Source of the DNA: a virus
Taxonomy: Duplodnaviria > Caudoviricetes
DNA: 45,802 nt
Reading direction: 5' to 3' (one strand)
Virus record (IMG/VR): IMGVR_UViG_3300030104_004308
Location: 1 to 45,802 of that record
Shown here: positions 10,581 through 44,732 of the stretch, one piece after another
How the letters are laid out: the number at the start of each line of letters is the position of its first letter
Numbering within the stretch: the first letter of the stretch is position 1
Program-made: the position numbers and the translations under genes
Notes under the pieces: model-generated
Told to the model about the DNA's origin: nothing
The model's input: only the letters and a program-made list of their open reading frames with translations
Databases searched by the model: none

Positions 10581-11603
10581 TTATGCCTCCTGTGGTAATA
10601 CTAATTCAACTCCGTATTTACTATTAAAATTATCTACATCTGATTGCGTAGCAATTTCAGCAAAGTCTGCTAGCGCTTCATAGCTTGTAGCTAAAAGATT
10701 TACGATGTCATCAGTTATTTCTTTTGGTAATCTAGCTCTTAATTCATCATAACTTATTTGTGTAGGTTGAGGATTTGTTACTGTCTCTGTTTCTTGCACG
10801 TTAACATCTGTTATTCCAGCTGGTGTGGCTGTCATTAAATTCATATCTTCTGTAACTGATCCACCTTCAGCTAATCCTGCATCAAAATCACCTACTAATC
10901 TTAATAAGTATTCTACAACTGCTTCGTTAATTTCTTCTAAAGTTGCATCATCACCTAAACTATCTTGAACTGTTTCAGTAACTGCTACAATTGTTTGAGG
11001 ATTTAAAATTCTAAATTTAGAAGCTTTGTTACCACCTCTAGCTATATCTAATTTAACTTCATCTCTTTTAGCATTAAGTGTTGCTATTTCTGTTTCATCT
11101 TTTGCAGCAGCAATTTTTTTGTCATAAAATTTATCGACTACATCTAATTGAACTTCTGTAGCTGTTTTCTTATCAGCTTTAGCCATTCCTACTTTGTAAT
11201 CTAAACCTGCACCTGTAAGAGAGGTTGCAAGATCTTGTCTTGATTGTCCTCTTGTATCCATAGAACTCGCTATGTCTGTTCCTAATTTTGCTAAAGGTTT
11301 AGATGCTGTAGCCAATGCTCCTGAAATTCCACCACCTTCTGATGGTCTTCCTAATAAATCTAAACCAGCACTAGCTACTCTTAAATAATCACTTGTACTT
11401 AATCCTCTTCGTTCTGGAATACCTCTTAAAATTTCTTCTCTCATACTTAATACTTCTTCACCAATTCCTGAATAACCACCTGGACCATCTACCAATCCTC
11501 TTTTATTTGGCATACCACCATTAGCCAAACCAGAAGCGATCCCCGTTCCGTAGCTTGATGCTCGGCCTCCTCTAAACATTGGTCTTCTTAAAATTCTACT
11601 CAT
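10581..11603 (-). CDS. Putative internal virion protein
   Basis: 340 aa; MSRILRRPMFRGG N-terminus; LANGG and LAEGG motifs; acidic C-terminal domain. Confidence 0.5.
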   Translation of the reverse strand: MSRILRRPMFRGGRASSYGTGIASGLANGGMPNKRGLVDGPGGYSGIGEEVLSMREEILRGIPERRGLSTSDYLRVASAGLDLLGRPSEGGGISGALATASKPLAKLGTDIASSMDTRGQSRQDLATSLTGAGLDYKVGMAKADKKTATEVQLDVVDKFYDKKIAAAKDETEIATLNAKRDEVKLDIARGGNKASKFRILNPQTIVAVTETVQDSLGDDATLEEINEAVVEYLLRLVGDFDAGLAEGGSVTEDMNLMTATPAGITDVNVQETETVTNPQPTQISYDELRARLPKEITDDIVNLLATSYEALADFAEIATQSDVDNFNSKYGVELVLPQEA

Positions 11604-12352
11604 TATCTTGACCCAAACATTCCTCTGGCTGCTCCCAGTAATCCAGTTGCACCAATACCTAATCCTAATAACTGTTGAGTTGTGCTAGGAGGAGGTGTTG
11701 ATTGAACTTGTGTTGCTGCAGGGAAACCACCAATTACTGATGCAAGCTGCGGACCAATTAATCCTAGTCTTGTGTAATCAGCAAATGCTGTTTCTCTAGC
11801 TGCTTCTTGATCTGCTGCTAATTGAGCTTGACCAAGTTGTCTTTGTTGTCCACCGATTTGGCTTTGATACTGACCCAAACCTTGTTGCTGTTGTAATTGT
11901 GAACCTGCTTGTTGTTGTGCTTGTTGAAATCCTTGTTGTCTTAATTGTGATTCTAATAATGCTCTTTGTGTTGCAGCGTCAGCTTGAAATACTCCTTCAG
12001 CTGCAGCCATTCTACTACCACCAAAAGCTCCTGCTCCTGCTGCTTGTTGTCTTAATGCATTTAATCCACTCGCTTGCTCTCTTTGTAAAGCTGCAAGCGA
12101 AGCATCAATTACTTCTTGTTGGTAAGGACTTTGAAATTGTTGATAAGCTTGTGGTCCTACTAAAGAATCTAAACCTGCTGCGGCTGTTGCTGCTTGTTGT
12201 TCTAAAGCTGATTGACCTTCTACAAATTGTCTACCTGTATAAGTTGATGTAGGTAACGCTGTACCTAATAATTTTAAACCTTCGTTAGTTACGCCTAGAC
12301 CGGCTGCTTCTACAAAGGGTTCTCTATACTGCCTAGTTTCTGTTATTGCCAT
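11603..12352 (-). CDS. Gln/Ala/Gly-rich DNA transfer (ejection/pilot-like) protein
   Basis: 249 aa; SPYQQEVID, GAGAFGGSR, Q-rich coiled coil, hydrophobic Gly-rich C-terminus. Confidence 0.6.
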   Translation of the reverse strand: MAITETRQYREPFVEAAGLGVTNEGLKLLGTALPTSTYTGRQFVEGQSALEQQAATAAAGLDSLVGPQAYQQFQSPYQQEVIDASLAALQREQASGLNALRQQAAGAGAFGGSRMAAAEGVFQADAATQRALLESQLRQQGFQQAQQQAGSQLQQQQGLGQYQSQIGGQQRQLGQAQLAADQEAARETAFADYTRLGLIGPQLASVIGGFPAATQVQSTPPPSTTQQLLGLGIGATGLLGAARGMFGSR

Positions 12353-14277
12353 TATACTTTTGCCTCCAAGTTATGCATTAAATCATACATACGTTTTGCG
12401 CCTTGGTTAACACTTCCGCCACCTGCAGCTCTAACTGCATCGGCTGTCATTACAAATTCGTTCTTGCTTAATCTTGCAGGAACATCATCTGCTTTTTCTT
12501 TTGTTCCTTCAGGAATAAATCCTCCACCTCTCATATCCTTATCCATGCCAGTATTCAATAAATTTCTGTTCATTAAACCACCGGCTTCCATTCTTCTAGC
12601 ATGATGTGCTATGCCACCCATAGCTGCATCCATCATATCAGGTTTGTTAGGTAATACTTGAGGCATTTTTTCTTCAAATAGTCTGTCTTCGTCAAATTCA
12701 GGAAACGATCGTGGTCCTGGCTCTTCATCGCCTGTATCTTCGGGCTCACCTTTTTTTCTTCTTTTTACTTTACCACCCTCTTTAAATGGATCATGACCAA
12801 TCGCATTATAATATGCATCACTATCATAAGCAATGTCTCCTGCTGCTTCATAGCTATAACCTAAAGACATTAAATGTTCTAAACGGTCTTGATACCATTG
12901 AGGTCCCGCTGTTTGACCTTTAATTTCTTCCATTTGATCTCTTGGTGTTGAATCCATTGAACCACCTTTAGCCATACCTGATCTAGCTTGTGCTAAAAAT
13001 TCTGAAAAAGACATAGGAACTAATCCTTGTTCTTCCATTTCAAAAACATATTGCTCATACATTTCTTCTATGTCTGTTTTATATCCTGATGCCATTTGCA
13101 TAATACCTTCATTAGGTTTTTGACTCATTCTATCAAAAGCGTCTCTAGCTGCTTTAGCTGCATCTGCTGGAGATAAACCCATATCTAAAAACTCTTCGTA
13201 AAGTTGTTCTAAAACTCTTTCATTATTTATATCTGATGCTTGTTCACCATATTGTATACCTTGGTCTTTCATAAAATCCATAATATTTAAATCATCTGTT
13301 TCTTCTTCTATTTCTATTTCACCCCCTCTAGCAAAACCCATTCTCATAGGTGTAGGATCAGTAAAGAAAGATTTTCCATAAGCTTTTTCTATTCCACCTA
13401 AAGCTTGACTCATTAATCCAGCATAATCTGGATCTGCTGGTCTTGTATAATAAACTTTTTCTTCTTCTTCCAGATCTTCAGGTTCCTCGTCTTTGCCGTT
13501 ACTTCGAATTAAAGGTTTAGCTTCTTTTCTTGAATATCTATTGTTTTTTTCCATAGATTTCATAAAACCTTTTAGACCTTTGGGAGCTTTTGTTCTTTTT
13601 TTAAATTTTTCTATTAATTCTATAAGTCCACCTTTTTCGTATCCATATCTATCTAACATTGAATTTATCTCATCTGGTTCGTAAGCTCCTGTATTTATAT
13701 AAATATTATAAATAGCACTTCTTCTATCTGCTTTACTTTTCATACCTTGTGATAATAAACTTTGATTGTATTTATCTATTTCTGCTTGATTAAGTTCTGC
13801 AAATCTAGCAGCTGAATCTATTGCTGTTTGTGCACCAATTGTTTTTAATGCACCCGCTCCTTTAATTCCTTCAGATGCTCTTGATAATACACCTGCTGTT
13901 TTTGCAGCTGCTCTTGCTCCTGCTGTGTCTCCTATTGCAACAAAACTATCTGAATCAGCTATAAGGTTAGGATCTAGTCTTCCTGCTACATTTCCTAAAC
14001 CTTCAGCTAAAAGATCTGGTGCACCAGCTAATGCTGCTGTTCTTAAAATGTTTGCATCTTCATCAGTGGCTGCTGCTGTAGCTCCTGCAATTAAACCTTT
14101 TGAAATAGCATTTCTTAAACCTGCGTTTCCAATACCACTTAAAAAAGTGTTGGAGCCAGCCATTTGTGGACCACCATAAAACGCTGCTATATAAGGTAAT
14201 GCTGGCCTAATTTCTTTAGGTATAATTTTTTTGGCTATCTTACGAACTGGTCTGAATACTTTTTTTAAAAATCCCAT
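12352..14277 (-). CDS. Putative internal virion protein with multiple xxGG-delimited modules
   Basis: 641 aa; amphipathic basic N-terminus, Ala/Gly-rich region, seven GG motifs, C-terminal DDVPARLSKNEFVMTADAVR domain. Confidence 0.6.
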   Translation of the reverse strand: MGFLKKVFRPVRKIAKKIIPKEIRPALPYIAAFYGGPQMAGSNTFLSGIGNAGLRNAISKGLIAGATAAATDEDANILRTAALAGAPDLLAEGLGNVAGRLDPNLIADSDSFVAIGDTAGARAAAKTAGVLSRASEGIKGAGALKTIGAQTAIDSAARFAELNQAEIDKYNQSLLSQGMKSKADRRSAIYNIYINTGAYEPDEINSMLDRYGYEKGGLIELIEKFKKRTKAPKGLKGFMKSMEKNNRYSRKEAKPLIRSNGKDEEPEDLEEEEKVYYTRPADPDYAGLMSQALGGIEKAYGKSFFTDPTPMRMGFARGGEIEIEEETDDLNIMDFMKDQGIQYGEQASDINNERVLEQLYEEFLDMGLSPADAAKAARDAFDRMSQKPNEGIMQMASGYKTDIEEMYEQYVFEMEEQGLVPMSFSEFLAQARSGMAKGGSMDSTPRDQMEEIKGQTAGPQWYQDRLEHLMSLGYSYEAAGDIAYDSDAYYNAIGHDPFKEGGKVKRRKKGEPEDTGDEEPGPRSFPEFDEDRLFEEKMPQVLPNKPDMMDAAMGGIAHHARRMEAGGLMNRNLLNTGMDKDMRGGGFIPEGTKEKADDVPARLSKNEFVMTADAVRAAGGGSVNQGAKRMYDLMHNLEAKV

Positions 14278-14342
14278 AATATTTAATGTGTTATTTAAGT
14301 GAAATGCAAGTTGGCTAGCCTTGATATAGCCAGTAATCTTAT

Positions 14343-14371
14343 ATTTTACTTGTTTTTATGCCTCCCGTCAA
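14343..14371 (-). promoter_or_regulatory. Sigma70-type promoter for the internal-protein operon
   Basis: Minus strand TTGACG (14371-14366), 17 nt, TAAAAT (14348-14343) in an intergenic gap. Confidence 0.65.
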
Positions 14372-14375
14372 TCAA

Positions 14376-18360: not shown

Positions 18361-19395
18361 CTACCTCGCCGTGGCTACATCGCCATTTGTCGAAACGATG
18401 GGTTGACCGAAGGCCATATATGTATATGAATTACCTGATGTATTTACATCATCATTAGTATCTATAATTTTAAATCCATTAGCATATATATTCATGTAAT
18501 CATTAGTAAATTCTGCATCAGTAGCGTTGGCTAATAATTGTTGGTTGTCAGGATTGTAACCAATTCTTTTATCATCCATTATAATCCAACCTTTACCAGA
18601 CTGTTCTCTTTTTATCATAACCCAAGCTGGTTTAAAGCCACAATAAACATAAGGACCATCAGCATTTCCATTTCCAATATATTGTCTGCCAATTTTACTA
18701 AATCCTTTTTTTTCTGCAAAACAATAAGCAATCATAGCACTTGCAGAATTTACTGGTCCAGTAGTTCCAATACTAAATACATTTGCATCTGGTGCTGTGC
18801 TTTGCCAATAAGTTGAACCACTTTGTGAACCAGAAGTTTCATTTAAGAAAAAATAAGATCCCCATCCAATACTATCAGTACCAACAGCCCACTCTTGTGC
18901 TGATGCTAAAGGTTTAGTTATAACTAATCTTGGTGCAACTCCAAGTCCATGACCTACTGTTGCATTTGAACCTGTGCCTGTGTAACTTACTATTGAAAAT
19001 CCACTTGTTGTATCAACAGAAACTGTTGAGCTAATTGTACCATTTCCATTGGCTGAACCTGAACCATTAGCTTTAAAATTCCAAGATACCATAGTCTGTC
19101 CTGATTGATTCACTTTATAATCAGAAGCATCAGAACCAAGAGTAAATCCATCAGTGTCAAATGCAGTTAAAGTATCTGCATCTGTTTGTTCTGTATCAGT
19201 AGAATTAGTTTGTATAAGTTTTGTTGCTCCTCTTACTGCATCACAAAGTCTATGTGCACCAGTGCCATCTCTACGTTTTAGCCAAACTAAATCAGGTTGA
19301 AACCCGACGCCTGTAATAGCATTAGTTGCACCTGTACCTGTATAAAGTATAGGGTTCATATAAGATGTTGATTTTGAAATTGTTGAATAAGCCAT
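18361..19395 (-). CDS. Cassette 3 gene C: beta-rich tail/receptor-binding partner protein
   Basis: LYTGTG...ITGVGFQPDLVWLK, GHGLGVAP, GFKPAWVMIK, YMAF; paralog of 21615-22661 and 25064-26134. Confidence 0.7.
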   Translation of the reverse strand: MAYSTISKSTSYMNPILYTGTGATNAITGVGFQPDLVWLKRRDGTGAHRLCDAVRGATKLIQTNSTDTEQTDADTLTAFDTDGFTLGSDASDYKVNQSGQTMVSWNFKANGSGSANGNGTISSTVSVDTTSGFSIVSYTGTGSNATVGHGLGVAPRLVITKPLASAQEWAVGTDSIGWGSYFFLNETSGSQSGSTYWQSTAPDANVFSIGTTGPVNSASAMIAYCFAEKKGFSKIGRQYIGNGNADGPYVYCGFKPAWVMIKREQSGKGWIIMDDKRIGYNPDNQQLLANATDAEFTNDYMNIYANGFKIIDTNDDVNTSGNSYTYMAFGQPIVSTNGDVATAR

Positions 19396-20705
19396 TATAC
19401 GTTTAATCCTTTTGTTGTTAGGGGTTGATATCCAGTAGGTACATCGTATTCAAATGTTCCCGGTGTTGAAGCTGATGTGCCTGCTGATGTTACTGCCGTA
19501 GTTGCAAAGTAACCATTTCCAAAATTACAATTCCACACAGTACCAGCATAACTTGATAAAGCAAAGGTATAAGTTGTATTTGCTGTTAAACTTAAAGCTC
19601 CTGTTCCGCTAGCACCGCTTGTAGGATCACCACTTTCTTGCCAAGTACCATTTTTACTAAAATAAATTTTAGAGTTGTCTAAATCCATAGCTACACCAAT
19701 AATATCATTATTCACATAACTAGTTCCGTAAGATGCACCACCATTAGATGCCGTGCCATTATTTTGATAACCTTGTCCTGTACTGTCTTGACCAATGTAC
19801 CATGAACTTGAAGAATTTTGTTTTTGATTATCTATATCTACTGCACCTATAATGCAATTACTTCCACTTGATATTAATTTAGCTTCAAAATAATATTTTC
19901 CACTTGAATCACCTAGTGTAGGTAATATAGTTTTCCAAGCACTTCCACTACCTCCGTTTGCAGTTGTGGCCCCATTTGTGTTAGCTTGCCACTGATTTGC
20001 AAAATGATATGTTTGATTAGTTAAAACACCAAAGTTGTTAGATGGACAATCTAAAGTTGGTGTACCACTTCCTGACATTGTAAGATCATTTGTATTACCT
20101 GATGTATCATCTCCTAAAGCAGATGTATCTTCAAAAGTAAGTTTAAAACCAGTACTACCGTAAGTTACTGAAGGATCGGCATTTGGCTTCCACTCGCCCG
20201 ACGTAGAATCTGTAGATCCAAAAGTAGAGGCCGCGTATTGAGTACCATCTATATATATAACTTGAGACATTAAACCATCAAAATAATTATCACTATTGCC
20301 ACTTTGACCAACGTAACAAGTTGTTCTAGTAACAAAATCTGTATTTATTGCTCCATAATCTACAGATGAAAAAGAAGTAATTTGTTCTCCATTAACATAC
20401 ATTTTAATTCTATCAGTAGATACTGCTTGAGTTGAATCTACTGCAATTACAACATGGTACCAACTTGAATTATCTTTATAAAGAGCTGTTGTTTTTGTAT
20501 CTGCTTCTGTACTTCCATCATATGCTTGCTTTATACATAATTTACCACTTTCAAAAAACATTCTAACATATCTTACAGAGCTTTCTGCAAATGATAAGAA
20601 AGCACCATTAAATGCAGATGATGCTGGTTTTAACCAAGCCGAAAGTGTAAAAATGTTTTGATTTGCTGCGTTGTCTGCTGCTTTTGTTAAATATGTTGAA
20701 GCCAT
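19395..20705 (-). CDS. Cassette 3 gene B: concanavalin A/LamG-like plus SPRY-like domain protein
   Basis: FTLSAWLK, WYHVVIA, KMYVNG (LamG); GKYYFE, IIGVAMDLDNSKIYFSKNG, NFGNG (SPRY). Confidence 0.75.
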   Translation of the reverse strand: MASTYLTKAADNAANQNIFTLSAWLKPASSAFNGAFLSFAESSVRYVRMFFESGKLCIKQAYDGSTEADTKTTALYKDNSSWYHVVIAVDSTQAVSTDRIKMYVNGEQITSFSSVDYGAINTDFVTRTTCYVGQSGNSDNYFDGLMSQVIYIDGTQYAASTFGSTDSTSGEWKPNADPSVTYGSTGFKLTFEDTSALGDDTSGNTNDLTMSGSGTPTLDCPSNNFGVLTNQTYHFANQWQANTNGATTANGGSGSAWKTILPTLGDSSGKYYFEAKLISSGSNCIIGAVDIDNQKQNSSSSWYIGQDSTGQGYQNNGTASNGGASYGTSYVNNDIIGVAMDLDNSKIYFSKNGTWQESGDPTSGASGTGALSLTANTTYTFALSSYAGTVWNCNFGNGYFATTAVTSAGTSASTPGTFEYDVPTGYQPLTTKGLNV

Positions 20706-20714
20706 AGTATATTC

Positions 20715-21611
20715 CTAGTTAAATTGCATTCCGTTTGATAAGCCATAAGAGCTAGTTAAAGTAAACTCTCTGTCCGTTGTTTGCGCTTGTGCGTCCGTCG
20801 CTCGAAGAGTGAACGTGTACGTTTGTGCAGTTGTTGCGGCGCCACCAAAGTCTGTAGTTGTTATCACACCTGTACTTGAATTTAAAGCACAATTTGCTAA
20901 AGACGCGTTTGTTAATACGTTTGTTACTTCACTGTAAGCAATAGTATCACCAGTTGCTGCTACGGTTGCAACTGTTCCTGAAAAATTACCAGCTACTGTA
21001 CCTAAAGATCCAGCTGAAGTTGTCCATACCGGAGCTGCTGATGTAGATAATTGACTTGTTGATCTAACAGATTGTCCGTTAGGATTAGTTATAATAATAA
21101 AATAATTTGTACCGTTAACTAAACCTGTTCCCGTTCCTACTGTTAATTGAGTAGCACTATCAAATTGTACTGTTGCTGCGTGTTGAATAGATCCATCTGT
21201 GTTAGATTGAAACTCAACTCTAGGTGTAGAAACATAATTAGTTCCTGTTATTACAATAGATGTATTAACTCCACCTTCAGCTGTAGTAGGTGTAAAGCTA
21301 GAAATTGTTGGAGCAGTAGCTGCATCATTTACTTGTGCAAAAGATAAGTTACCTGAACCATCTGTTTTTAAAAAATAACCATCAGTAATAGATTGTGGAA
21401 AAGTTAAAGTGTAACTTTGAGCGGCTGAATGGGGCGGACTTTTCAGTTTAATTCCGTGGGAATTCTGCGAACAATTTAATTGTAAGTATCCGTCAGTTGT
21501 ACCATCACCTTTGACTGTAGCGCCAGGTGTACTAGAAGTAGATATTAAATCTAGTTTAACTGTTGTGACGTTTGCGTCTGTTATCCCTGGTGTTTTTATT
21601 TTTGTTGTCAT
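20715..21611 (-). CDS. Cassette 3 gene A: fibre/adaptor with IPT/TIG and Ig-like domains
   Basis: DANVTTVKL, LKTDGSGNLSF fibre motif, PTISSFTP...ITGTNY, YTFTLRATD, ends QFN. Confidence 0.7.
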   Translation of the reverse strand: MTTKIKTPGITDANVTTVKLDLISTSSTPGATVKGDGTTDGYLQLNCSQNSHGIKLKSPPHSAAQSYTLTFPQSITDGYFLKTDGSGNLSFAQVNDAATAPTISSFTPTTAEGGVNTSIVITGTNYVSTPRVEFQSNTDGSIQHAATVQFDSATQLTVGTGTGLVNGTNYFIIITNPNGQSVRSTSQLSTSAAPVWTTSAGSLGTVAGNFSGTVATVAATGDTIAYSEVTNVLTNASLANCALNSSTGVITTTDFGGAATTAQTYTFTLRATDAQAQTTDREFTLTSSYGLSNGMQFN

Positions 21612-21614
21612 AAT

Positions 21615-22661
21615 CTATCTTGCGTTTGCTGCTATATTATTTGAGCCAACCAGAGGTGCTTCTGCAAATGCCATGTAGATCTGGCTTACACCTGATTGAT
21701 TAAATATGCTGTCGGCATTTCTTACTTTAAAACCATTAGATAAAAAATCACAATTAACTAAATTTGTTAATTCAGCACTATTACTATCAGCTTTTATCCA
21801 AGCTGAACTTCCATTATAACCTAATCTTTTATTATCATTCATAAACCAATGTTGGCTACCAGTATCAGCATTTTTTCCAAGAATAAAAGCTGGTTTAAAT
21901 CCTGTGTAAACAAATGGTCCATCAGCATTTCCGTTTCCAATATAGCTTCCGTAAGATGAAAATCCAGTTATAGGGGCAAAAGCATACATTATGTAAGTTT
22001 GACCACTAGCATTAGTAGGTGCAGAATTTCCAAGCGAAATAGTAGAACTTGTTGGTGCGGCTCCACCCCAAACGGATGGACTATTAGTTGATTGTGCATC
22101 AGCAGTATCTAAATATACTTTATAATCCCAAGATGTTAAACCTGAACTTCCTACATACCATGATTCAGCACCACTTGTTTTTTTCGTTATTAAAAATGTA
22201 GGAGCAACACCTAAACCATGACCAATCGTTGCACCATCGGACCCATTCCCCGTGTACTGAATTATAGAAACTCCTGATGTTGTATTAGCTGATGTGTAAG
22301 TAGTTGTTATTGAACCGTCTCCATTTGAAGAACCTTGACCATTAGCTTTCCAGTTCCAAGATACGTAAGTAGCACTATTATCATTAATTACTGACCAATC
22401 TCCAATAGTAAAACCATCCGAATCAAATGCAGTTAAACCATTAGATGCTGTATCTTCGTAATCACTCTTGTTAGGTCTTATTTCTTTTGTAACACCTCTT
22501 ACGGCATCAAATAGTGCATGGTCTGTAGCAGCACTTCTACTTTTAAACCACACCATATCAGGTTGAAAACCTATTCCTGTTTGTGCGTTAGATGAACCTG
22601 TACCTGTGTAAAGTTTAGTATTAAAATAATCTGTACTCTTATTTACTGTTGTAAATGCCAT
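21615..22661 (-). CDS. Cassette 2 gene C: beta-rich tail/receptor-binding partner protein
   Basis: YFNTKLYTGTG, GFQPDMVWFK, GHGLGVAP, YMAFAEAP. Confidence 0.7.
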   Translation of the reverse strand: MAFTTVNKSTDYFNTKLYTGTGSSNAQTGIGFQPDMVWFKSRSAATDHALFDAVRGVTKEIRPNKSDYEDTASNGLTAFDSDGFTIGDWSVINDNSATYVSWNWKANGQGSSNGDGSITTTYTSANTTSGVSIIQYTGNGSDGATIGHGLGVAPTFLITKKTSGAESWYVGSSGLTSWDYKVYLDTADAQSTNSPSVWGGAAPTSSTISLGNSAPTNASGQTYIMYAFAPITGFSSYGSYIGNGNADGPFVYTGFKPAFILGKNADTGSQHWFMNDNKRLGYNGSSAWIKADSNSAELTNLVNCDFLSNGFKVRNADSIFNQSGVSQIYMAFAEAPLVGSNNIAANAR

Positions 22662-23995
22662 TATTCGTTTAATCCTTTAGTTGATAGAGCTGTGTAGCCT
22701 GTTGGTACATCATACTCAAATTTACCGATACCTGATGCGTTAGTTCCTTCTGAAGATATTTGAGTGGTTCCAAAATATCCGTTGCCAAAATTTACTTCAT
22801 AAGTACCATTAGCTGAATCGTTATCGTCCCAATACCCTACTGCTGGGAAATAACTACCTAGTGATGTAGAAGCTGGTGCAGTTATTGTGTAAGCACCTGT
22901 GCTTGTTGTTGGGTCTGCTGAATTTTGCCAAGTGCCATTTTTACTAACAAATAATCTATTATTATCTAAATCCATTCCAATACCTATAATATCGCCAGCC
23001 GTATAAGTATCATAACCTGTACTGACACTTCCACCATTATAATTTAAACTACCTTGGGAATAATACATATATTCATTAGCATTTGATGTTATAAATTGAG
23101 TAGATGCTGTTGCTTGTGTTCCAACAATTCCAAGAGTTCCATAAGTAGATGCTAAAGAATTTACTTTTATTTCCCAATAATATTTACCGGAAGATGCTCC
23201 TATAGTTCCCATTACTGGTGCCGATTCTTTAGTTGTAATTTTTAAATTTCCATTACTAAATGTTGCTTCCGGATAATAATTATTTATAAAATTTAAAGTA
23301 GCAAAAACATTACTAGGATTATCTTCAGTATTAGTTAGTGTACCACTCTCTAACGTAAAGTTATTAGCATTACCTGATTCATCTGTTACTGAACCACTAT
23401 TTTTTAAAATAAAGAAACCGTTGTTTCCATACGTAACCGTAGGACTTGTGTTGATCTCCCATTGTCCAGTCGTTGCATCCGTCGACCCAAAGGTTGAAGC
23501 ATCATAAGCCGTACCATCTATAAAATGTGCATGAGTTATTATACCAGTGAATGGGTCATTTGTAGTTCCAGGGGTACTTACTCCAAAACAAAAATTAAAA
23601 TCTGTAGTTCCAAAACCAAAATTAGTATCTTGAGCGGGATAACCTGGAGTATTAAGATCACCATCAGCAATTTGTTCTCCATTAATATATAATTTTAATC
23701 TGTCTATATTTGTTGATTGAGTTGTGTCTCCAGCTATAACAATATTGTACCATCCGCTCGTATCGCGGAATAATCTTTTTGTATTTATTAATCCTGCTGC
23801 ACTTCCACTAATAGAACCAACCCATCTTAATTCATCATCAGAATCAAATCTAAATTGAAATTCATTAGAACCATTATGGATTGAAGTAAAAAAGTTTTCT
23901 TGTGTGCTTAATTTACCTCTTTTTAACCAACAAGAAAAAGTAAATTTTTTTCTATCTGTTGCTGTTACCTGTGCTTTTGTTAAACTTACTGCCAT
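22661..23995 (-). CDS. Cassette 2 gene B: LamG-like plus SPRY-like domain protein
   Basis: FTFSCWLKR, WYNIVIA, KLYING; GKYYWE, GDIIGIGMDLD, NFGNG. Confidence 0.75.
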   Translation of the reverse strand: MAVSLTKAQVTATDRKKFTFSCWLKRGKLSTQENFFTSIHNGSNEFQFRFDSDDELRWVGSISGSAAGLINTKRLFRDTSGWYNIVIAGDTTQSTNIDRLKLYINGEQIADGDLNTPGYPAQDTNFGFGTTDFNFCFGVSTPGTTNDPFTGIITHAHFIDGTAYDASTFGSTDATTGQWEINTSPTVTYGNNGFFILKNSGSVTDESGNANNFTLESGTLTNTEDNPSNVFATLNFINNYYPEATFSNGNLKITTKESAPVMGTIGASSGKYYWEIKVNSLASTYGTLGIVGTQATASTQFITSNANEYMYYSQGSLNYNGGSVSTGYDTYTAGDIIGIGMDLDNNRLFVSKNGTWQNSADPTTSTGAYTITAPASTSLGSYFPAVGYWDDNDSANGTYEVNFGNGYFGTTQISSEGTNASGIGKFEYDVPTGYTALSTKGLNE

Positions 23996-25060
23996 CTAGT
24001 TGAACTGTCCGCCTCCCGTCGCCCCGTAAGAGCTTGTTAATGTAAATGCTCTATCAGCAGTCTGGCCTTGTGCATCCGTCGCTCGAAGTGTAAACGAGTA
24101 GGTCGTCGGACTTGTAGCTGAACCACCGAAGTTAGTAGTTGTTATCACACCTGTTGATGAATTTAAAGTACAATTTGCTTGTGCTGCGTTAGTTAAAACA
24201 CTTGTTGTTTCAGAATATACAATTGTATCTCCTGTTGCAGCGACTGTTGCTACTGTTCCATTAAATCCTCCAGCAATAGTTCCAAGAGAACCAGCGCTAG
24301 TTGACCATGCAGGTGCATCAGAAATAGTTAGAACTGCTGTAGAAGATCTTACAGCTAGTCCGTCTGTGTTTTCAATCCTAACATAATACGTGCCGTCCGT
24401 AGTTAAAGTTCCTACAGCCGTAATTTGTGTTGAAGAATCTCTAGTTACAGAATCAGCAGGTACAATTGCTCCTGTTGAAGCTACAAAATCTACTTGTACT
24501 CCATCATTAAAATTAGTTCCTACAATAGTAAAAGTTGTTGCGTCGTTTGTTGATATACTAGGAGAAATAGAAGTAAAAGTTGGAAAACCTAAAACCGCTT
24601 GTACATTTATAGATCCACCCAACGCAACTGATGAACTGTTAATAGTAATCGCACCACTTCCTGTTAATGCAGAGTTTGGAACTGGTGTACTTAATTTAGC
24701 TTCTGTAACTGCTCCATCATTTATCTTTGCTGTTGTTACAGCTGAATCTGCTAATTTTCCTGTAGATACTGTACCATCGCCTGGTGTTGAAATTAATCCA
24801 AAACCATTATGAATAATAAAATCATTTGTCTGTGAAGAAGACATTGAACTTGTAAAGGTAATTGTTGAACCATCTATGCTGAACGTGGCTGGTGATTGAA
24901 TAACACCATCAACTGAAATAATTAAAGCGGCTTCAGATACAGGTACAAAAGCTGTAGAGTCTTGAGTTAAGTTATAAGGTCCAACTGAATTAGTGAACGT
25001 AATAACATCAAGAACTGATGCGTTTGATATATCTCCTGTTCCTCGTCCGATATAAGCCAT
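23996..25060 (-). CDS. Cassette 2 gene A: fibre/adaptor with IPT/TIG and Ig-like domains
   Basis: MAYIG start, VDGVIQSP, three D..V...K[LI] repeats, PTFTSISP, YSFTLRATD, ends QFN. Confidence 0.7.
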   Translation of the reverse strand: MAYIGRGTGDISNASVLDVITFTNSVGPYNLTQDSTAFVPVSEAALIISVDGVIQSPATFSIDGSTITFTSSMSSSQTNDFIIHNGFGLISTPGDGTVSTGKLADSAVTTAKINDGAVTEAKLSTPVPNSALTGSGAITINSSSVALGGSINVQAVLGFPTFTSISPSISTNDATTFTIVGTNFNDGVQVDFVASTGAIVPADSVTRDSSTQITAVGTLTTDGTYYVRIENTDGLAVRSSTAVLTISDAPAWSTSAGSLGTIAGGFNGTVATVAATGDTIVYSETTSVLTNAAQANCTLNSSTGVITTTNFGGSATSPTTYSFTLRATDAQGQTADRAFTLTSSYGATGGGQFN

Positions 25061-25063
25061 ATA

Positions 25064-26134
25064 TTATCTTGCCGTTGTTGGCAGTCCTCCATCTACGTTT
25101 GCTACAAAAGGTGCTTCTGCAAAGGCCATGTAACAATATGTTTCACCATCGGTATTCATACTTGTATCAGTATTATTAATTTTAAAACCATTACTATATA
25201 GACTCATTGCTACAGTTGCAGAAGTTCCTTCTGCAGACGTATTATTAGCAGTTAAATAATAGTTTTTAGTATTAAATCCAATTCTTTTAGTATCCATGAT
25301 ATACCAAGATTCTGAACCCTGGCTTTTAATCATAACAAAATTTGGTTTAAAACCTGTGTTAATAAAAGGACCATCAGATACTCCCGTACCTTCGTAGTTT
25401 CCTATTTTTGAATAACCCTTTATTGAACGAAAACAATAAGCTAGTACTGTTTGAGTACTTCCACTTAAAAAAGCACTTCCATTAGTATACCATACTGTTG
25501 ATGTAGGCTCTGTTCCACCAGCTTTAAACATTCTTCCTGAACCACTACTTGAATCTCCACTATTATAAAAAGCATTACTTAAGTTAAGTACAAAATAACC
25601 ATTCCAACTTAAACCAAAACCACCTACAATCCAATTGCTTGTACCAGTACTAGTTTGTTTCATAAAAATTGCTTCAGGTGCTGCACCTAAACCATGACCT
25701 ACTGATATTGCGGATTGCGTGCATTCAAATTGAACAAGACTAAAACCAGCTGTTGTATTAGCAGATACAGTTACACTATTTGCACTTCCATCTGAATTAG
25801 CTGAACCTGTTCCGTTTGCTTTCCAATTCCAACCAACATAAGTGGAGCCACTACCATTAAAACCAGTATCTGTATTAACTGTAAATCCATCAGAATCAAA
25901 AGATGTCATACCAGCTGCAGATGTTTGTGCCGCAGCACTCGAATCTGATTGGAGAATTGTAGTTGAACCTTGTATTGCATTGGTTAAAAAATAATTTTCT
26001 GTACCACTTCTTTGTTTAACCCAACAAAAATCAGGTTGAAATCCAACTCCTGTTATAGAATTAGAACTACCTGTTCCTGTCCATAATTTAGTATTGAAAT
26101 AATCTGTTGGTTTTATAATTGCGCTGTATGCCAT
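25064..26134 (-). CDS. Cassette 1 gene C: beta-rich tail/receptor-binding partner protein
   Basis: YFNTKLWTGTG, GFQPDFCWVK, GHGLGAAP, YMAFAEAP. Confidence 0.7.
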   Translation of the reverse strand: MAYSAIIKPTDYFNTKLWTGTGSSNSITGVGFQPDFCWVKQRSGTENYFLTNAIQGSTTILQSDSSAAAQTSAAGMTSFDSDGFTVNTDTGFNGSGSTYVGWNWKANGTGSANSDGSANSVTVSANTTAGFSLVQFECTQSAISVGHGLGAAPEAIFMKQTSTGTSNWIVGGFGLSWNGYFVLNLSNAFYNSGDSSSGSGRMFKAGGTEPTSTVWYTNGSAFLSGSTQTVLAYCFRSIKGYSKIGNYEGTGVSDGPFINTGFKPNFVMIKSQGSESWYIMDTKRIGFNTKNYYLTANNTSAEGTSATVAMSLYSNGFKINNTDTSMNTDGETYCYMAFAEAPFVANVDGGLPTTAR

Positions 26135-26143
26135 AGTTTCTCC

Positions 26144-27484: not shown

Positions 27485-27493
27485 AATTTTATC

Positions 27494-28276
27494 CTAGTTA
27501 AACTGTGTTGATCCTTCCGCGCCTACAGTAATCGTCATAGTAAACGCTCTGTCAGCCGTTTGCGATTCTGCATCCGTCGCGCGAATCGTAAACGAATATT
27601 GAGTAGTTGACGTCGCTCCACTCTCTGTACCTGATATCACACCTGTAGATGTATTTAAAGATAAACCTCCAGGGAATGTACCACTTGTTTTAGAGTATGT
27701 AATTGGTGCATCTCCTGTTGCTGTAACAGTAGATGAAATAGATGAAGCTGCTGAAAAAGTTCCAAGAGTACCAGCACCAGTTGACCATGCAGGGCCATCA
27801 GAAACTGTTAATACTGATCCAGAAGAAATTGCTTCTCCATCTGGGTTTTGAATAAAAATACTGTATGTACCATCAATAGAAATTGTAAAAGTTGCCGTTA
27901 AACTAGTAGCAGAAGTAAAAGCCACGGATGAGGCCGTAATTCTTGCTCCGCTAGTAGTGTTAACTGCTTCAACTAAAGGAATAGATACAAATCCTGTTCC
28001 TGTAATTGTAATACTTGAAGCTGTGTTGTCAATAACCGAAGGACTAATAGAAGTAAATGCTGGACCTGTTTCTGTTGTAGTAATACTACCTGAAGATCCT
28101 AATGCAACAGTAACTGAATTATATGTAACTGAATCATTTTGCAACGCAGCATTTTGTATAGTCAATAATTTATCATTACTGATGCTACCTGCTAACTTCG
28201 CATTAGTTACTATTCCATCTGCAATATCAGCTGCTGTAAGAGCTTGAGATGCAGGCCTGTTGCCAATATATGCCAT
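27494..28276 (-). CDS. Cassette 1 gene A: fibre/adaptor with IPT/TIG and putative Ig (He_PIG-like) domains
   Basis: MAYIGNRP, DGIVTNAKL, PAFTSISP, PGGLSLNTSTGVISGT, YSFTIRATD, ends QFN. Confidence 0.7.
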   Translation of the reverse strand: MAYIGNRPASQALTAADIADGIVTNAKLAGSISNDKLLTIQNAALQNDSVTYNSVTVALGSSGSITTTETGPAFTSISPSVIDNTASSITITGTGFVSIPLVEAVNTTSGARITASSVAFTSATSLTATFTISIDGTYSIFIQNPDGEAISSGSVLTVSDGPAWSTGAGTLGTFSAASSISSTVTATGDAPITYSKTSGTFPGGLSLNTSTGVISGTESGATSTTQYSFTIRATDAESQTADRAFTMTITVGAEGSTQFN

Positions 28277-37007: not shown

Positions 37008-37201
37008 TACTTAACCCATCTATCAATCAAACTAATTTTTTCTTCTGCTTCTTTAACCTTATCTAATAGTTTATCTATCTCATCTAAATGTTGAGGATGC
37101 TCTCCTATTCCAACAGGGTGTTTAAGATAAATATTAATTGTTGCTATTCCTTCGGCTACTTGTGCTTCGTATCTTTTTTTAAGTGCTTCTAACATTTCCA
37201 T
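37007..37201 (-). CDS. Hypothetical protein
   Basis: 64 aa; PVGIGEHPQ motif common in marine phages. Confidence 0.65.
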   Translation of the reverse strand: MEMLEALKKRYEAQVAEGIATINIYLKHPVGIGEHPQHLDEIDKLLDKVKEAEEKISLIDRWVK

Positions 37202-37470
37202 CTTTTTCTAGCCTGACGTAGTCTAGAATTAGGATCTTTAGCAGCTTTAGGGAATTGTCTCATTTGACCTGCACTTCTTGCGCAGTACGACTTACGTCGG
37301 TTTGCAGCTTTTGACCCTTTTTTTACTTTACCAGTCACGGCTGTTTTTAATTTAGAACCGGGATTTTTTCTTCTGTAGGCAGCGACACCGGCTCGAGTCA
37401 TACCTGCTCCAGACTTTGTAGGTCTAAAGTTTCTTTTGTTTCTAGCAGGCATATTATCCTGTTTTCTCAT
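37189..37470 (-). CDS. Small basic protein
   Basis: 93 aa, K/R-rich; NPGSKLK, RRKSYCARS, SRLRQARKRWKC. Confidence 0.7.
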   Translation of the reverse strand: MRKQDNMPARNKRNFRPTKSGAGMTRAGVAAYRRKNPGSKLKTAVTGKVKKGSKAANRRKSYCARSAGQMRQFPKAAKDPNSRLRQARKRWKC

Positions 37471-37473: not shown

Positions 37474-37791
37474 TTATTTTTTAGCAGTTTTAGCTGATCT
37501 TTTTAAAGCTTTGTCTGTAACAGAACCTTTTCCTGGTTTACTTTTACCAAGTCTTTTAGCTCTGTTCATATAATAGTATAAACCTTTTCTAACTCTACGT
37601 CCATCTTTAGTAGTGTGATAATTACTTGAACCACCTTTTTTAAAGACACCTCTGCCTTTTAAAACGTCAGCTCTAGTTACTTTACCATCACCTGTTAAAT
37701 CAGGAAATGATTTTCTTTGTTTAGCTTTTCCGCCATCTTTCATGAGGGCTCTACCAGATCCTCTCATTTGTATTCCATATTTTCCAGCCAT
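37474..37791 (-). CDS. Small basic protein with an EF-hand-like DLTGDGKVTRAD segment
   Basis: 105 aa, K/R-rich; MKDGG and FKKGG flank FPDLTGDGKVTRADVL. Confidence 0.65.
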   Translation of the reverse strand: MAGKYGIQMRGSGRALMKDGGKAKQRKSFPDLTGDGKVTRADVLKGRGVFKKGGSSNYHTTKDGRRVRKGLYYYMNRAKRLGKSKPGKGSVTDKALKRSAKTAKK

Positions 37792-37886: not shown

Positions 37887-38068
37887 TATTTTCTCCGCAT
37901 TTTTTTAAATGTTTGAGCAAGTCTTGCACGTTGGCCTAACTTACCACCAGCTTTAGCAGCTCTTGCTAAAGTTTTTGCAGGAATCTTTTTACCTTTTTTG
38001 ATTCCTAGAGATTTTCTTAAAGCACCTGGTTTCTTAACTGCTTTTTGAATCCATTTTTTGTCAGCCAT
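37886..38068 (-). CDS. Small basic protein
   Basis: 60 aa; WIQKAVKKPGALRKSLG...RARLAQT. Confidence 0.7.
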   Translation of the reverse strand: MADKKWIQKAVKKPGALRKSLGIKKGKKIPAKTLARAAKAGGKLGQRARLAQTFKKMRRK

Positions 38069-38301
38069 TATCTTTTAGCGACTCCGCCACCTCTAGTAGC
38101 TTTGCCCATAGATTTAACGTGACCGCCTTTTTTCATAGCTTGTCCCATTCCTCTTTTAGCTAATCCACCGCCTCTTTTTAGCTCTCTAACTATTCTTTTC
38201 TTTTCATCCTTAAGATTTCTTTTGCCTTTTCTAGTTCTTGCTTTTTCAGCATCTACTCGGCCAAGTTCCTCAAGTCTGTTCATACGTCTTGTGTTTGCCA
38301 T
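38068..38301 (-). CDS. Small basic protein
   Basis: 77 aa; NRLEELGRVDAE then LKRGG, MKKGG, ATRGG. Confidence 0.65.
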   Translation of the reverse strand: MANTRRMNRLEELGRVDAEKARTRKGKRNLKDEKKRIVRELKRGGGLAKRGMGQAMKKGGHVKSMGKATRGGGVAKR

Positions 38302-38558
38302 TATTTTTTCCTTCTTCCTTTGTCCATAGTTCTTACACTTGCGTAAGCTCTACGTCCCATTGCTTTTTCCATACCTTTAGATTCATCTCTTCTAGCTTTA
38401 AAGCTTTGAGATTTTTTACCTCTTCGGGCACCTAAAGATTCATCAAGTCTATCGTTGTAGCCTTGTCTTTTTCTTTTCTTTACGCTACCACCTTTTTTCT
38501 TTCCTTGTCCGTAAGGGAATCTTGGTGGAGAGTATCTTGTTCCAAAGTCGTTTCTCAT
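38301..38558 (-). CDS. Small basic protein
   Basis: 85 aa; KKKGG, QGYNDRLDESLG, RRDESKGMEK. Confidence 0.65.
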   Translation of the reverse strand: MRNDFGTRYSPPRFPYGQGKKKGGSVKKRKRQGYNDRLDESLGARRGKKSQSFKARRDESKGMEKAMGRRAYASVRTMDKGRRKK

Positions 38559-38945: not shown

Positions 38946-39146
38946 TTAGTACCAAGTAGCTTTAACTGGTTTCTTATCGGCTCTCATAGCTTTCGTTCCC
39001 TTAACAGTCACTGTTTGTGATGTTAATGGATCAGTAGCTTCGATAGTTTTACCACCTGTTTGGTAACCATCTTTGCCAACACCTAATTCTTTTGTAATTT
39101 TAGGTGCTTTTACGTAAGCTTGTCCTCTTGTCCAATCTTTACCCAT
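38946..39146 (-). CDS. Hypothetical small protein
   Basis: 66 aa with SD AAGGAG; YQTGG motif. Confidence 0.6.
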   Translation of the reverse strand: MGKDWTRGQAYVKAPKITKELGVGKDGYQTGGKTIEATDPLTSQTVTVKGTKAMRADKKPVKATWY

Positions 39147-39173
39147 TTTTATCTCCTTGTTTGTTAATTATAT

Positions 39174-41648: not shown

Positions 41649-41664
41649 ATCTCTTTCCTGTTAA

Positions 41665-43614
41665 TTATATTACACCTTTAAGTGAATTTATACCGTACAT
41701 ATTAGGGTATGTAAAGCCTGAACGTCTTGATCTTTCTAAAGCTCTTTTTTGCTCTTCAGCTTCTCTTTGTTTTCTAACCCTTTCTTTTACAGCTTCAATA
41801 TCAACAGCTTCTATGCCTTCTCGTGTTGGTGTATAAAAATCTGTATCTAACATCGACTCATCACCTGCTATTTGTTGTTCCGATACAGCTTGTCTTTCAA
41901 GATCGCTCATTTTTAAAAGATCTTGTGCTTCTGCAACTCGACCTGACAATAAAAAAGGTGATGCTAAAATTTCAGCTGTTGTTTTACCTTGTTTTCTCAT
42001 GTTAATCATATTGGCTACTTCAAGAGGTATTGCTGCTATACCTAAAGCTTTGCCTCCAATCTTTGCAATATTTTTAATAGCGCTTGCTGTTTTACCTAAT
42101 CTTCCTGAACCAAGTTGAGTGCTTGAAGCATCAATAGTTAAATCACCTGCAAAAGGATTAGATAATCCAGGAAATAATTCTTTAAACATCGCGGGATCCA
42201 GAGGAATTCCTCCGTAAAATCTTGTGCCTGTTGTTGAAGCTTGCTTTAAAGCTTTTAATACTTCAGGGGGCATTCTTTTGCCTTGAGATTTATATAGATC
42301 TTTTATTTTAGTAATTGTATCAACATCTTTACCATAAATTTTTTTTCCAGGAGCCGTAAGCACGTTAGGATCAGATTTTCTAACAAAGGTTTCGAATACT
42401 TTTCTTTTTTCACCAAATGTCTTTGCTTTTTTTATATCTGGTATTACAGCTTCTCTCGGTCTAAACTCGTTAAAATTTTTATCATAAGCTAAAAGTTGAG
42501 TTACAAAAGGATTTCTCTTTATTCCAAAAGGATGATGAACTTGCATAGAAGTATGAAAAGGATTTCCCGCATTATAATTAGGAATTAAAGTTTTATTTAA
42601 GTGTTGATTTAAATTAACATTTTTTCCTTTGTAGTCAAAAAAAGTTTCGTTTAATAAAAATTTTTCTTTAAAAGGAGTTAATACTTTTTCATAAGCACCT
42701 TTACCAATATTTTTATTTATATAGTTTTGTAAATTATTATAACCAAAAGTTTTTCCAGTTTGAGTATCATAAAATTTAACGTTTTTAACATTTGCCCCTT
42801 TAAATTTTTTAGGGACTGTTTTTTTTACTAATTGTAATCTTGAAGGTCCTTTTCCTTGAGTGCTAGTGTACAAGCTTTTCCAAAATCTATCTTTAGCATT
42901 ATTGCCTGAAGCCCACACTCCATATTTATTTTCAAAAGCTTCTCTTGCTGCTTTATTACGCAATCTTCTTGTTTTTCTAGCTTTAGGTGTTCGTTCATAT
43001 TCTCTTTTCTTTGCTAAATATTCTTTACTTCTATAAAAACCAGCGTCAGCTTTTTTCTTTCTGGCTGCAGCTTGAGTGGCTTTGTAACGTAGATCTTCTA
43101 AACTTAATTTTCCTTGATTATATAATTTAACAGATTTCTTTCCTTCTTTAGTTCTATTTAAAACTTTTTTTATTTCTCCCACTTTTCTAGGGACCATAGC
43201 TTTGGGTAGTTGTTTAGAAATTCCTGCAGATTCATTATATAAACCAACTGCTTGTCTATTTAATTTTCCGCCATATTCAGTAACATACTTATCTTTAATA
43301 ACTTCTCTTATAAATTCGCTATCAGTTAAATTTTTATTTTTAAGTCTTAAAGTTTTAAATTCTTCTACTGATAAACCTATTTTGCCTTTTGGTATTTTTA
43401 ATTTTTTATAAGCTTCTGCCGCTTGCTTTTCGGTTTTATACAAACCAACAGTCTTTCCATTTTTAACAACTTCATAAGGTTTAGCTCTATTACGTGAAGG
43501 TCGATATCTTACTCCTGGTGGGTATTTTCCATATAGCTCTGTTCCTTTCTCTACAAGGCCACCAACTTTATAACCCGGTCTTATTCTTTCAAGTATAGAT
43601 GTAAATTCTGACAT
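41665..43614 (-). CDS. Large basic orphan protein with AP2-like and HNH-like segments
   Basis: 649 aa; YKVGG near N-terminus; GVRY...NGKTVGLYKTEKQAAEAY; QVHHPFG...NPF...N. Confidence 0.5.
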   Translation of the reverse strand: MSEFTSILERIRPGYKVGGLVEKGTELYGKYPPGVRYRPSRNRAKPYEVVKNGKTVGLYKTEKQAAEAYKKLKIPKGKIGLSVEEFKTLRLKNKNLTDSEFIREVIKDKYVTEYGGKLNRQAVGLYNESAGISKQLPKAMVPRKVGEIKKVLNRTKEGKKSVKLYNQGKLSLEDLRYKATQAAARKKKADAGFYRSKEYLAKKREYERTPKARKTRRLRNKAAREAFENKYGVWASGNNAKDRFWKSLYTSTQGKGPSRLQLVKKTVPKKFKGANVKNVKFYDTQTGKTFGYNNLQNYINKNIGKGAYEKVLTPFKEKFLLNETFFDYKGKNVNLNQHLNKTLIPNYNAGNPFHTSMQVHHPFGIKRNPFVTQLLAYDKNFNEFRPREAVIPDIKKAKTFGEKRKVFETFVRKSDPNVLTAPGKKIYGKDVDTITKIKDLYKSQGKRMPPEVLKALKQASTTGTRFYGGIPLDPAMFKELFPGLSNPFAGDLTIDASSTQLGSGRLGKTASAIKNIAKIGGKALGIAAIPLEVANMINMRKQGKTTAEILASPFLLSGRVAEAQDLLKMSDLERQAVSEQQIAGDESMLDTDFYTPTREGIEAVDIEAVKERVRKQREAEEQKRALERSRRSGFTYPNMYGINSLKGVI

Positions 43615-44732
43615 TATGAATAATCACTAAATGTTGATGGGTCATTGACTGATGAACCAAATGTTCCTTGAGTTGTTTCACCAGGTCCACCACTCATAGA
43701 CTCTGCATCTCTTATCTGTCTTAATGCATTTAATCTATCAAACTCACGTTGTGCTGCATCTTGTTCTTCTTGTATTCTTTTATTTCTTTGATCTTCCATA
43801 AAGTCATCAAATCTATTTTTAGCAGCAACACCTTTATCTCTTACAAATTTAAAAGCATTTAAAGCTGGAGACATTGATAACAATGTTTGAAGAATGCCTT
43901 TGTCTTCATTAGCTGCTTCATATTCATAATCAAAAACATCTTTACTTAATCCTGTTGGATTAATTCCATAAGCTTCTGTTTCATAATCAAAATTTTTATT
44001 TCTATTTACATTAGTTATACCTGATCCACCATCACCTTCTTGTCCTGGTATAATAATTGGTTTTATAACAGGAGGAACAACAGGAGCAGCTGCTACTCTT
44101 GTAGGTTGTACTTGATTTTGTAAAAGAGAACTAACGGTTTGAGGTTGAGTTGTTCCCACACCAAACAAATCTTCGTATTGTTGTTGAGTATATCTATCTT
44201 GTAAAGTTGGGTTAGATAGATAAGTACCTATCACGTTTGATATTCCTCCACCTGTATTAAAATTAACTCTGCCACCATAAGCTTTTTTAGTTGGATCATC
44301 TTTGTTTCTTTTTTTAAAATTTCTAATAGCTTCTCTGTTTTGTCTTGTTAATTTTTTATATAATTCTCTTGTAGATTCTTGCATAACTAATTTAGGATCA
44401 ACAGCTTCTTTTACTTTTGTAGTTTTAGGAGCTTGTCCTATCTTAACATCTTTACCTTTACCTTGTTTCATTAGCATATTCATAATGCCTTCAGGTGACA
44501 TCTTTGATGTCTTACCTTTTACAGTTACAGGTATAGTACCTTCTGGTTTTGTAGGTCTGGGTTTGAAAGGATTTGTAATTCTATCTTTTGGAAATTGAAT
44601 AACTTTTTTAGAATCAATAACTTTCTGTCTTGCTTTTTGTTGTAGCTTTAAAAGATCAAGTCCTTTAGGCAAAACTCCTCGAGCTGCCTTGTATGCTTTG
44701 ATCATTAAATTTAAAACTTGTAAATAACCCAT
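43614..44732 (-). CDS. Orphan protein, basic N-half and acidic C-half joined by tandem GG motifs
   Basis: 372 aa; KAYGGRVNFNTGG; TAATG coupling on both sides. Confidence 0.55.
   Translation of the reverse strand: MGYLQVLNLMIKAYKAARGVLPKGLDLLKLQQKARQKVIDSKKVIQFPKDRITNPFKPRPTKPEGTIPVTVKGKTSKMSPEGIMNMLMKQGKGKDVKIGQAPKTTKVKEAVDPKLVMQESTRELYKKLTRQNREAIRNFKKRNKDDPTKKAYGGRVNFNTGGGISNVIGTYLSNPTLQDRYTQQQYEDLFGVGTTQPQTVSSLLQNQVQPTRVAAAPVVPPVIKPIIIPGQEGDGGSGITNVNRNKNFDYETEAYGINPTGLSKDVFDYEYEAANEDKGILQTLLSMSPALNAFKFVRDKGVAAKNRFDDFMEDQRNKRIQEEQDAAQREFDRLNALRQIRDAESMSGGPGETTQGTFGSSVNDPSTFSDYS

Follow-up and report, generated by a model that had tools for sequence, protein, structure and literature searches.

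A Gly-Gly motif restricted to certain protein classes in a partial pelagiphage-type genome, and its possible role in protein maturation

The window analysed here is the entire 45,802-nucleotide stretch of IMG/VR virus record IMGVR_UViG_3300030104_004308 (Caudoviricetes), and our subject is a short motif built around Gly-Gly (GG) that recurs on otherwise unrelated proteins encoded in it. The window is a 45.8-kb partial genome of an HTVC023P/027P-type pelagiphage. Its capsid protein is 73% identical to that of HTVC023P and 76% to that of HTVC027P (both Pelagibacter phages), and it is recognized as partial because the terminase is truncated at the window end (44732-45802) and the DNA polymerase region known from HTVC027P is missing from the contig. 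The gene order is podophage-type and parallels that of HTVC027P: terminase, two orphans, portal, small basic genes, GroES, scaffold, capsid, neck and tail genes, a nozzle-like gene and a four-gene cassette. This presumed ejection cassette consists of the genes for proteins of 641, 249, 340 and 1412 amino acids (aa), and its 249-aa protein matches the PHROG 'DNA ejection protein'.

All of the motif-bearing genes lie on the minus strand. The first cassette gene (12352..14277), encoding the 641-aa protein, carries the motif about seven times, and the motif is found in all 76 complete relatives. The copies include YEKGGLI (residues 213-219, 13621..13641), FARGGEI (residues 315-321, 13315..13335), MAKGGSM (residues 435-441, 12955..12975) and FKEGGKV (residues 498-504, 12766..12786), as well as the weaker AAMGGIA and MEAGGLM (12571..12627) directly ahead of a C-terminal module (residues 582-641, 12352..12534). 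This DDVPARLS..EFV module, hereafter the EFV module, itself begins with the motif and reads M-R-G-G-G-F-I ... D597 ... E607-F-V, with two predicted helices. The third cassette gene (340 aa, 10581..11603) encodes MFRGG (11565-11579), LANGG (11514-11528) and LAEGGSV (10854-10874). Among the small basic proteins, that of 105 aa (37474..37791) has MKDGG (37729-37743) and FKKGG (37630-37644), that of 77 aa (38068..38301) has MKKGGHV (38116-38136) and a low-scoring LKRGG (38167-38181), and that of 85 aa (38301..38558) has KKKGGSV (38481-38501), which is MKKGGSV in relatives. The 66-aa protein behind the portal gene (38946..39146) contains YQTGG (39051-39065), with the motif present in 40 of 47 complete relatives. 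Finally, the 649-aa orphan between terminase and portal (41665..43614) contains YKVGGLV (43552-43572), and the 372-aa orphan (43614..44732) contains a tandem KAYGG-RVN-FNTGG with 8-residue spacing (44241-44285).

A first-pass annotation of the window had named twelve five-residue sites outside the 641-aa protein. All twelve were confirmed in frame in the open reading frames (ORFs) to which it had assigned them, each of its positions being the lowest coordinate of a 5-mer read from the minus strand (e.g., MFRGG 11565-11579, YKVGG 43558-43572). The hydrophobic first position that it had described applies to most of these sites, with KKKGG and KAYGG having Lys instead. Across 58 window ORFs, GG starts number 116 against 120.8 expected, and bare [FYML]xxGG shows no enrichment (25 vs 20.2 ± 4.3, p = 0.16; 2000 per-protein shuffles). 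The aliphatic residue that was said often to follow GG is borne out, as [FYML]xxGGx[VILM] occurs 14 times against 3.9 ± 2.0, a count reached by 0 of 2000 shuffles; six of the 14 sites are in the 641-aa protein, two in the terminase and one in the 1412-aa protein. The proposed enrichment over shuffled controls therefore holds for the longer pattern and for the full motif, but not for the bare one. Since the Gly codons at the motif differ synonymously, it is a protein motif, and a DNA repeat is ruled out.

The class distribution of the motif was studied in 320 related loci (2.59 Mb, 3520 ORFs), with ORFs classed by BLAST and synteny. In a first count, GG sites with both flanks were compared with expectation after removal of similar sites. 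They are in excess in the 641-aa family (61 vs 13.7), the 340-aa family (24 vs 5.9), the small genes between portal and GroES (41 vs 5.4) and the terminase-portal orphans (44 vs 18.7). The other classes gave 15 vs 29.6 in tail and neck, 2 vs 3.0 in the head core, 1 vs 1.6 in the 249-aa family and 5 vs 7.6 in the 1412-aa family, with no sites in portal, nozzle or replication enzymes.

In a second count, we used a held-out matrix, for which the sole training set was 77 relatives of the 641-aa protein without their last 75 residues. When the window's 116 GG sites are ranked by this matrix, 16 of the top 17 fall in the eight proteins named by the first-pass annotation, although five of these 16 lie in the 641-aa protein, whose close relatives trained the matrix; eleven of the twelve named sites are within the top 17, LKRGG being the miss. 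On the 320 loci, distinct sites were compared with composition-preserving shuffles, leaving out antisense ORFs and classes of fewer than 20 proteins; sites from related genomes are not independent in these counts. The motif is enriched 15-20-fold in the 340-aa family (48 vs 2.4), the 66-aa family (12 vs 0.8), the small basic genes (81 vs 5.0) and the terminase-portal orphans (106 vs 6.4). The ratio is 0-1.2-fold in tail and neck (8 vs 7.4), head core (4 vs 3.2), portal (0 vs 2.4), nozzle (0 vs 3.6), replication (1 vs 2.0), early genes (0 vs 2.4), the 249-aa family (0 vs 1.8) and the 1412-aa family (5 vs 4.4). Small excesses are seen in the terminase (2 vs 0.4), in small genes between nozzle and 641-aa gene (3 vs 0.4) and among unassigned ORFs (2 vs 0.2).

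Because the class pattern is kept after similarity deduplication and in the held-out families, the motif is class-specific. The comparison by gene class that had been suggested earlier thus bears out the contrast between four held-out families and the tail, capsid, portal and enzyme classes, while the idea of a genome-wide signal has to be given up. Marking of all co-ejected proteins is not supported, the 249-aa and 1412-aa families being at chance. We give almost no credence to chance or composition as the source of the motif: the bare pattern is unenriched in the window and there are genuine false positives (the terminase and some Shine-Dalgarno tails, described below), but the held-out 15-20-fold excess over composition-preserving shuffles refutes this explanation for the full motif. 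Judging by gene position, the proteins that carry the motif as a tag are probably virion-internal. Of 73 terminase-portal orphans, 54 carry the motif and 66 have no Pfam match. A terminase-portal orphan at another locus (L144, 850-2904) contains Hint (intein-like autoprocessing) domains, a further device for self-processing in this variable position.

The consensus of 316 sites is R-x-G-[YFM]-[AK]-x-G-G-x-V, with the final position also given as [VI]. Relative to GG, Arg is enriched 6.8-fold at -6, Gly 3.9-fold at -4 and Val 7.4-fold at +3; two residues before GG stands Ala in 85 sites and Lys in 77, and three residues before it Tyr, Phe and Met are enriched (424 GG-x-aliphatic sites). Tandem copies with 8-residue spacing were found in 71 distinct cases. 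In the 340-aa family the motif closes a conserved N-terminal leader and lies within the first 35 residues in 46 of 46 complete relatives. Similarly, the conserved leader of the 649-aa orphan closes at R-P-G-Y-K-V-G-G-L-V in 6 of 6 aligned sequences, with divergence immediately after it, and in 24 of 101 complete orphans the motif is near the C-terminus. Where BLAST matches break off internally, the motif is within 8 residues about 3-4 times as often as at random positions (starts in the 641-aa family, 857 vs 267 of 1951; ends in the orphans, 63 vs 18 of 391), although a shared motif can itself anchor BLAST ends; the excess is weaker in the small genes and absent at starts in the 340-aa family. 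The motif is therefore a shared protein signal placed at leaders, ends and block junctions, and the leaders, breakpoints and module start agree with its earlier placement near N-termini and domain boundaries.

Such a placement could also be expected of a flexible joint without any reader, copied from the first strand of the EFV module by duplication and recombination. Its position at block junctions, its tandem repeats and its richness in Gly fit this explanation. However, the motif also stands alone at leaders and tails of unrelated proteins of 60-100 aa, it retains specific side chains while the codons vary, and it is not found in equally variable, Gly-rich tail proteins (the same 8 vs 7.4), so that we regard a readerless joint as improbable.

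It is important to separate the motif from its look-alikes. The terminase sequence F-R-Q-G-G-F-I (44792..44812, minus strand) is excluded from the tags: of 48 terminase tails, 39 conform to the motif, but the others have QGS, QGN, AGN, QAG or KGW, so the second Gly is dispensable, and by sequence the match is a structural look-alike. Of eight very short C-terminal tails (GG-x-V-stop), three are in fact the GGAGG Shine-Dalgarno site of the gene that follows. At L128:4506-4781, L141:7270-7557 and L190:792-1067, a C-terminal M-S-x-G-G-[LM]-V-stop is encoded by GGAGG lying 6-7 nt before the next ATG, evidently a Shine-Dalgarno mimic of the motif. A different situation is seen in the DUF6321 basic protein of the window (37189-37470), which is without the motif; an [FYML]xxGG site occurs in 6 of 22 relatives, mostly right before the domain, and this one family has both gained and lost the tag.

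The 641-aa protein is far more strongly conserved in its last 60 residues than elsewhere, and tblastn and profile searches tie this part, the EFV module, to tape-measure proteins. A profile of 76 module sequences matches Douge gp16 twice (7e-27), JBD30 gp46 at 1017-1066 (8e-10) and, weakly, lambda gpH (0.011). The Douge and JBD30 matches start at [FY]-A-x-G-G, and in lambda gpH an F-A-T-G-G lies about 20 residues ahead of the weak match. The invariant D, P, A, E and V of the module alignment are partly an effect of the search pattern; the Glu is retained in lambda, Douge, JBD30, HTVC023P and Pag-Yong1. AlphaFold2 monomers of the module (n = 2; pLDDT 63 and 77) predict two helices, with no structure in the N-terminal half that bears the motif. 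Foldseek and VIA-align gave no match to this model in the Protein Data Bank (PDB), which says little, as the first 37 residues of the model are without secondary structure. In HMO-2011 gp49 (L795:33490-35778), from an unrelated podophage group, the module is N-terminal in a protein encoded directly after the portal, and the matrix scores no tags.

The first-pass annotation had also proposed a test of whether tags and module co-occur. The module is present in 22 of 27 family records and in 9 of 9 near-complete ones, some records having been found via the module, and the complete genome of CRP-901 is without it. Tags outside the module protein number 6 in the window, 5 in HTVC027P and 5 in DSL-LC04, with about 1 expected, and 2 in HTVC023P and 1-4 in six further relatives, in counts made with a matrix tuned to this clade and 50 kb read of longer records. 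Free tags are at chance in four podophages without the module (CRP-901, HTVC010P, T7 and P22). The module thus occurs without free tags, but free tags without the module were not seen (0/4).

These results bear on whether the motif might be a cut site for a host protease or an unrecognized phage protease, with the module merely one of the substrates. A host enzyme, OpdA, trims P22 gp7 according to the record annotation; a work cited in the T5 study names, by its title alone, host involvement in tail-protein cleavage; and the window is partial. On the other hand, the hosts of phages with the motif-led module include E. coli, Pseudomonas, mycobacteria and SAR11, a spread that speaks for a reader carried by the phages themselves, and no free tags were seen in the four podophages where the module is missing. 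We consider an outside protease unlikely. No prohead protease was matched in the partial window with Pfam, PHROGs (47 ORFs) or NCBIfam (29 ORFs), and the Atlas neighbours of the 152-aa pre-capsid protein are all unnamed; the lack of a recognized prohead protease we count in favour of a cut that is read by the module.

Known cases of tail-protein maturation can be compared with the motif. In T5, pb2 matures to pb2* and pb2C, and a cut after R1127 was reported from proteomics and intact mass (PMC10038345). The sequence at this cut is R1127|A-E-G-G-M-M, one of only two A-x-G-G sites in 1219 residues. The site belongs to a conserved, widespread [RK]-A-x-G-G-P-V family, in which GG is present in 104 of 107 sequences and R or K before it in 90. 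T5 pb2 therefore resembles the window motif in having A-x-G-G at the reported cut, in the proposed register, with a conserved Glu-bearing stretch after it. It differs in being a single, disputed site in a siphophage tail, and no shared motif is described in the accessible parts of the two T5 papers (PMC10038345, PMC11937520).

Lambda gpH is processed to gpH* and gpHC of about 78 and 14 kDa, and both catalyst and site were stated to be unknown in 2025 (PMC12617516). Computed products fit roughly: 79.6 + 12.5 kDa for F733|A-T-G-G and 78.1 + 14.1 kDa for S717|A-S-G-G. JBD30 gp46 has a predicted 'hook' at 1022-1066, and its authors guess a cut after it, at 1066 (PMC11445458), not before it. Lambda gpH, JBD30 gp46 and Douge gp16 are alike in having the module by profile search with [FY]-A-x-G-G ahead of it, and in lambda the cut is nearby. 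Unlike the window module, which lies in an ejection cassette of podophage-type order, theirs is part of a tape measure in long-tailed phages, and the accessible parts of the lambda and JBD30 papers (PMC12617516, PMC11445458) describe no free tags on other proteins.

The closest parallel for cargo is protein C1 (gp45) of crAss001, which was resolved in two pieces, residues 425-552 at the portal and residues 214-245 within the tail (PMC10172136; PDB 7QOG chain M). Among its 842 residues gp45 has eight A-x-G-G starts, and the portal-bound piece begins exactly at A425-F-G-G; the tail-barrel piece, about 420 Å away, is inside a block bounded by motifs at 207 and 261. In a C1 alignment, the conserved domain begins at x-x-G-G in 25 of 25 rows (gp45 counted twice). 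The T5 cut and the start of the crAss001 fragment share a register, two residues before GG. As the crAss001 start supplied the register, which T5 then turned out to match, only one of the two is a real test. C1 is thus a proven virion cargo, punctuated by A-x-G-G, with a portal-bound domain that opens at the motif, but it belongs to a different phage order and its authors treat it as uncut, 'cleav' being absent from the main text (PMC10172136). Regions of crAss001 detected by mass spectrometry (79-101, 181-190, 275-300 and 307-320) span no motif; they are uninformative on cutting because the motif-spanning tryptic peptides are mostly long (26-65 residues). Homology between the modules did not rise above shuffles. 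The profile score of the EFV module is matched by 4 of 40 shuffles both against the T5-type module and against C1, that of the T5-type module against C1 by 34 of 40, and crAss_CARG1 (PF25725), an Atlas lead at 0.82, is matched by 0 of 76 module-family members.

Based on these observations, we tentatively favour a maturation cut, read by the module, before A/K-x-G-G on variable, probably virion-internal proteins. Tagged proteins would enter the prohead, where the EFV module, likely paired, would engage its own motif and the motifs of other cargo. The cut would fall between the first hydrophobic residue and A/K-x-G-G, and the module would either make or read it, with E607 (together with D597) as a candidate catalytic or new-N-terminus-binding residue. 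Cutting would free leaders, basic peptides and swappable blocks for ejection, and there might be no need to thread twelve C1 chains through the portal; the same recognition may also serve for loading. The earlier description of a 'sorting or maturation signal' is accordingly a reasonable one and in part supported, with the outside evidence leaning to maturation.

The chief competing explanation is an uncut docking tag: by completing the EFV module, or by binding to it (or to the portal), the peptide would bring cargo together in the prohead. Residues conserved before as well as after GG, copies repeated in tandem every 8 residues and the mixed chemistry at -3 are in line with docking. So are the predicted module, which when modelled alone leaves its motif-bearing half unstructured as if needing a partner, and crAss001, whose A-F-G-G lies within an ordered, portal-bound domain. 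However, docking leaves unexplained both the common register of the T5 cut and the crAss001 resolved start, and how twelve intact C1 chains span capsid and tail. The very short C-terminal tails look supportive but were dropped as proof of docking, given the Shine-Dalgarno sites among them. Docking is possible, although we think it rather unlikely.

Several points weigh against the module-read cut. The residue before the proposed cut is variable (Y, F, M, L, K, R, N, H), which is odd for a single protease, and the module has no recognized protease fold in PDB matching of the predicted model. Lambda is without the module Asp, and free tags are also at chance in the module-bearing HMO-2011, Caulobacter RW and Pag-Yong1. 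The T5 site is disputed, V1148 having been put forward instead (PMC11937520), and R1127 is a trypsin site. A resolved domain may begin at the motif without being cut there, and, with no homology above shuffles among the three modules, only the short motif links them. Moreover, a protease could lie outside the partial window, and our literature search found neither proteomics nor a structure for this phage group.

The first-pass annotation had compared the motif with the T4 capsid-targeting sequence and with adenovirus core-protein maturation. In T4, the targeting sequence is an N-terminal propeptide of 10-19 residues that is cut after L/I-x-E by a herpes-type prohead protease, gp21 (PMC9026906). 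The two are alike in placing one short peptide on proteins that are otherwise unrelated, are often small and basic and have their genes among those of the head, in N-terminal leaders that close at the signal, and in removal by cutting, which is only proposed here. Unlike the T4 signal, the window motif is N-terminal in the 340-aa family (46/46) but elsewhere also internal, tandem and C-terminal, no Glu precedes the proposed cut, and no gp21-like protease was recognized in the partial window. As far as sequence can tell, the motif resembles the T4 logic of targeting and clipping but departs from the T4 signal in position, sequence and protease. The adenovirus protease cuts after GG at sites with M, I or L two residues before it, on basic core proteins. 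A hydrophobic residue with Gly-Gly on basic proteins is common to both systems, but in the window motif A or K stands two before GG and the hydrophobic residue three before, so that the adenovirus register does not fit.

Two further observations concern other parts of the window. Three tandem triplets of related tail genes lie at 18361-28276 (344/436/298, 348/444/354 and 356/446/260 aa), the first triplet matching DUF7483 and SPRY/laminin-G and the other two triplets looking paralogous by eye; they possibly represent three fibre types. An S-adenosylmethionine decarboxylase-like gene (5316-5720; TIGR03330, 1e-14, under the curated cut-off) adjoins an M15 endolysin.

In the literature covered (PMC10713586 and PMC11445458 included), which did not extend to subscription papers, we found no description of the motif; in the text of Iyer 2017, 'xGG', 'GGx', 'glycine' and 'tape measure' are all absent. 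The present analysis adds a class test on held-out families of this phage group, classes of false positives, and the register that the crAss001 fragment has in common with the T5 cut.

Little is known about how the internal proteins of short-tailed phages are selected, packaged and let out, and cutting at the motif, if true, would explain the still-unexplained cleavage of the T5 and lambda tail-ruler proteins. A broader and more doubtful proposal is that many tailed phages have in common one undescribed self-processing system, in which a module of 60 residues, centred on a Glu, would cut ahead of A/K-x-G-G-x-V both in itself and in any tagged protein. Such a module would supply the catalyst still missing for the maturation of lambda gpH and T5 pb2 and would be the basis of a load-and-release code in marine podophages and crassviruses. 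If this system exists, unrelated effectors and basic peptides could join the virion by gaining ten residues. The motif itself predicts new N-termini at A/K-x-G-G in cultured HTVC027P virions and a lambda gpHC of 12.5 or 14.1 kDa, and it points to a single candidate Glu. At the sequence level, it also flags probable cargo among the orphan genes that abundant ocean phages carry.

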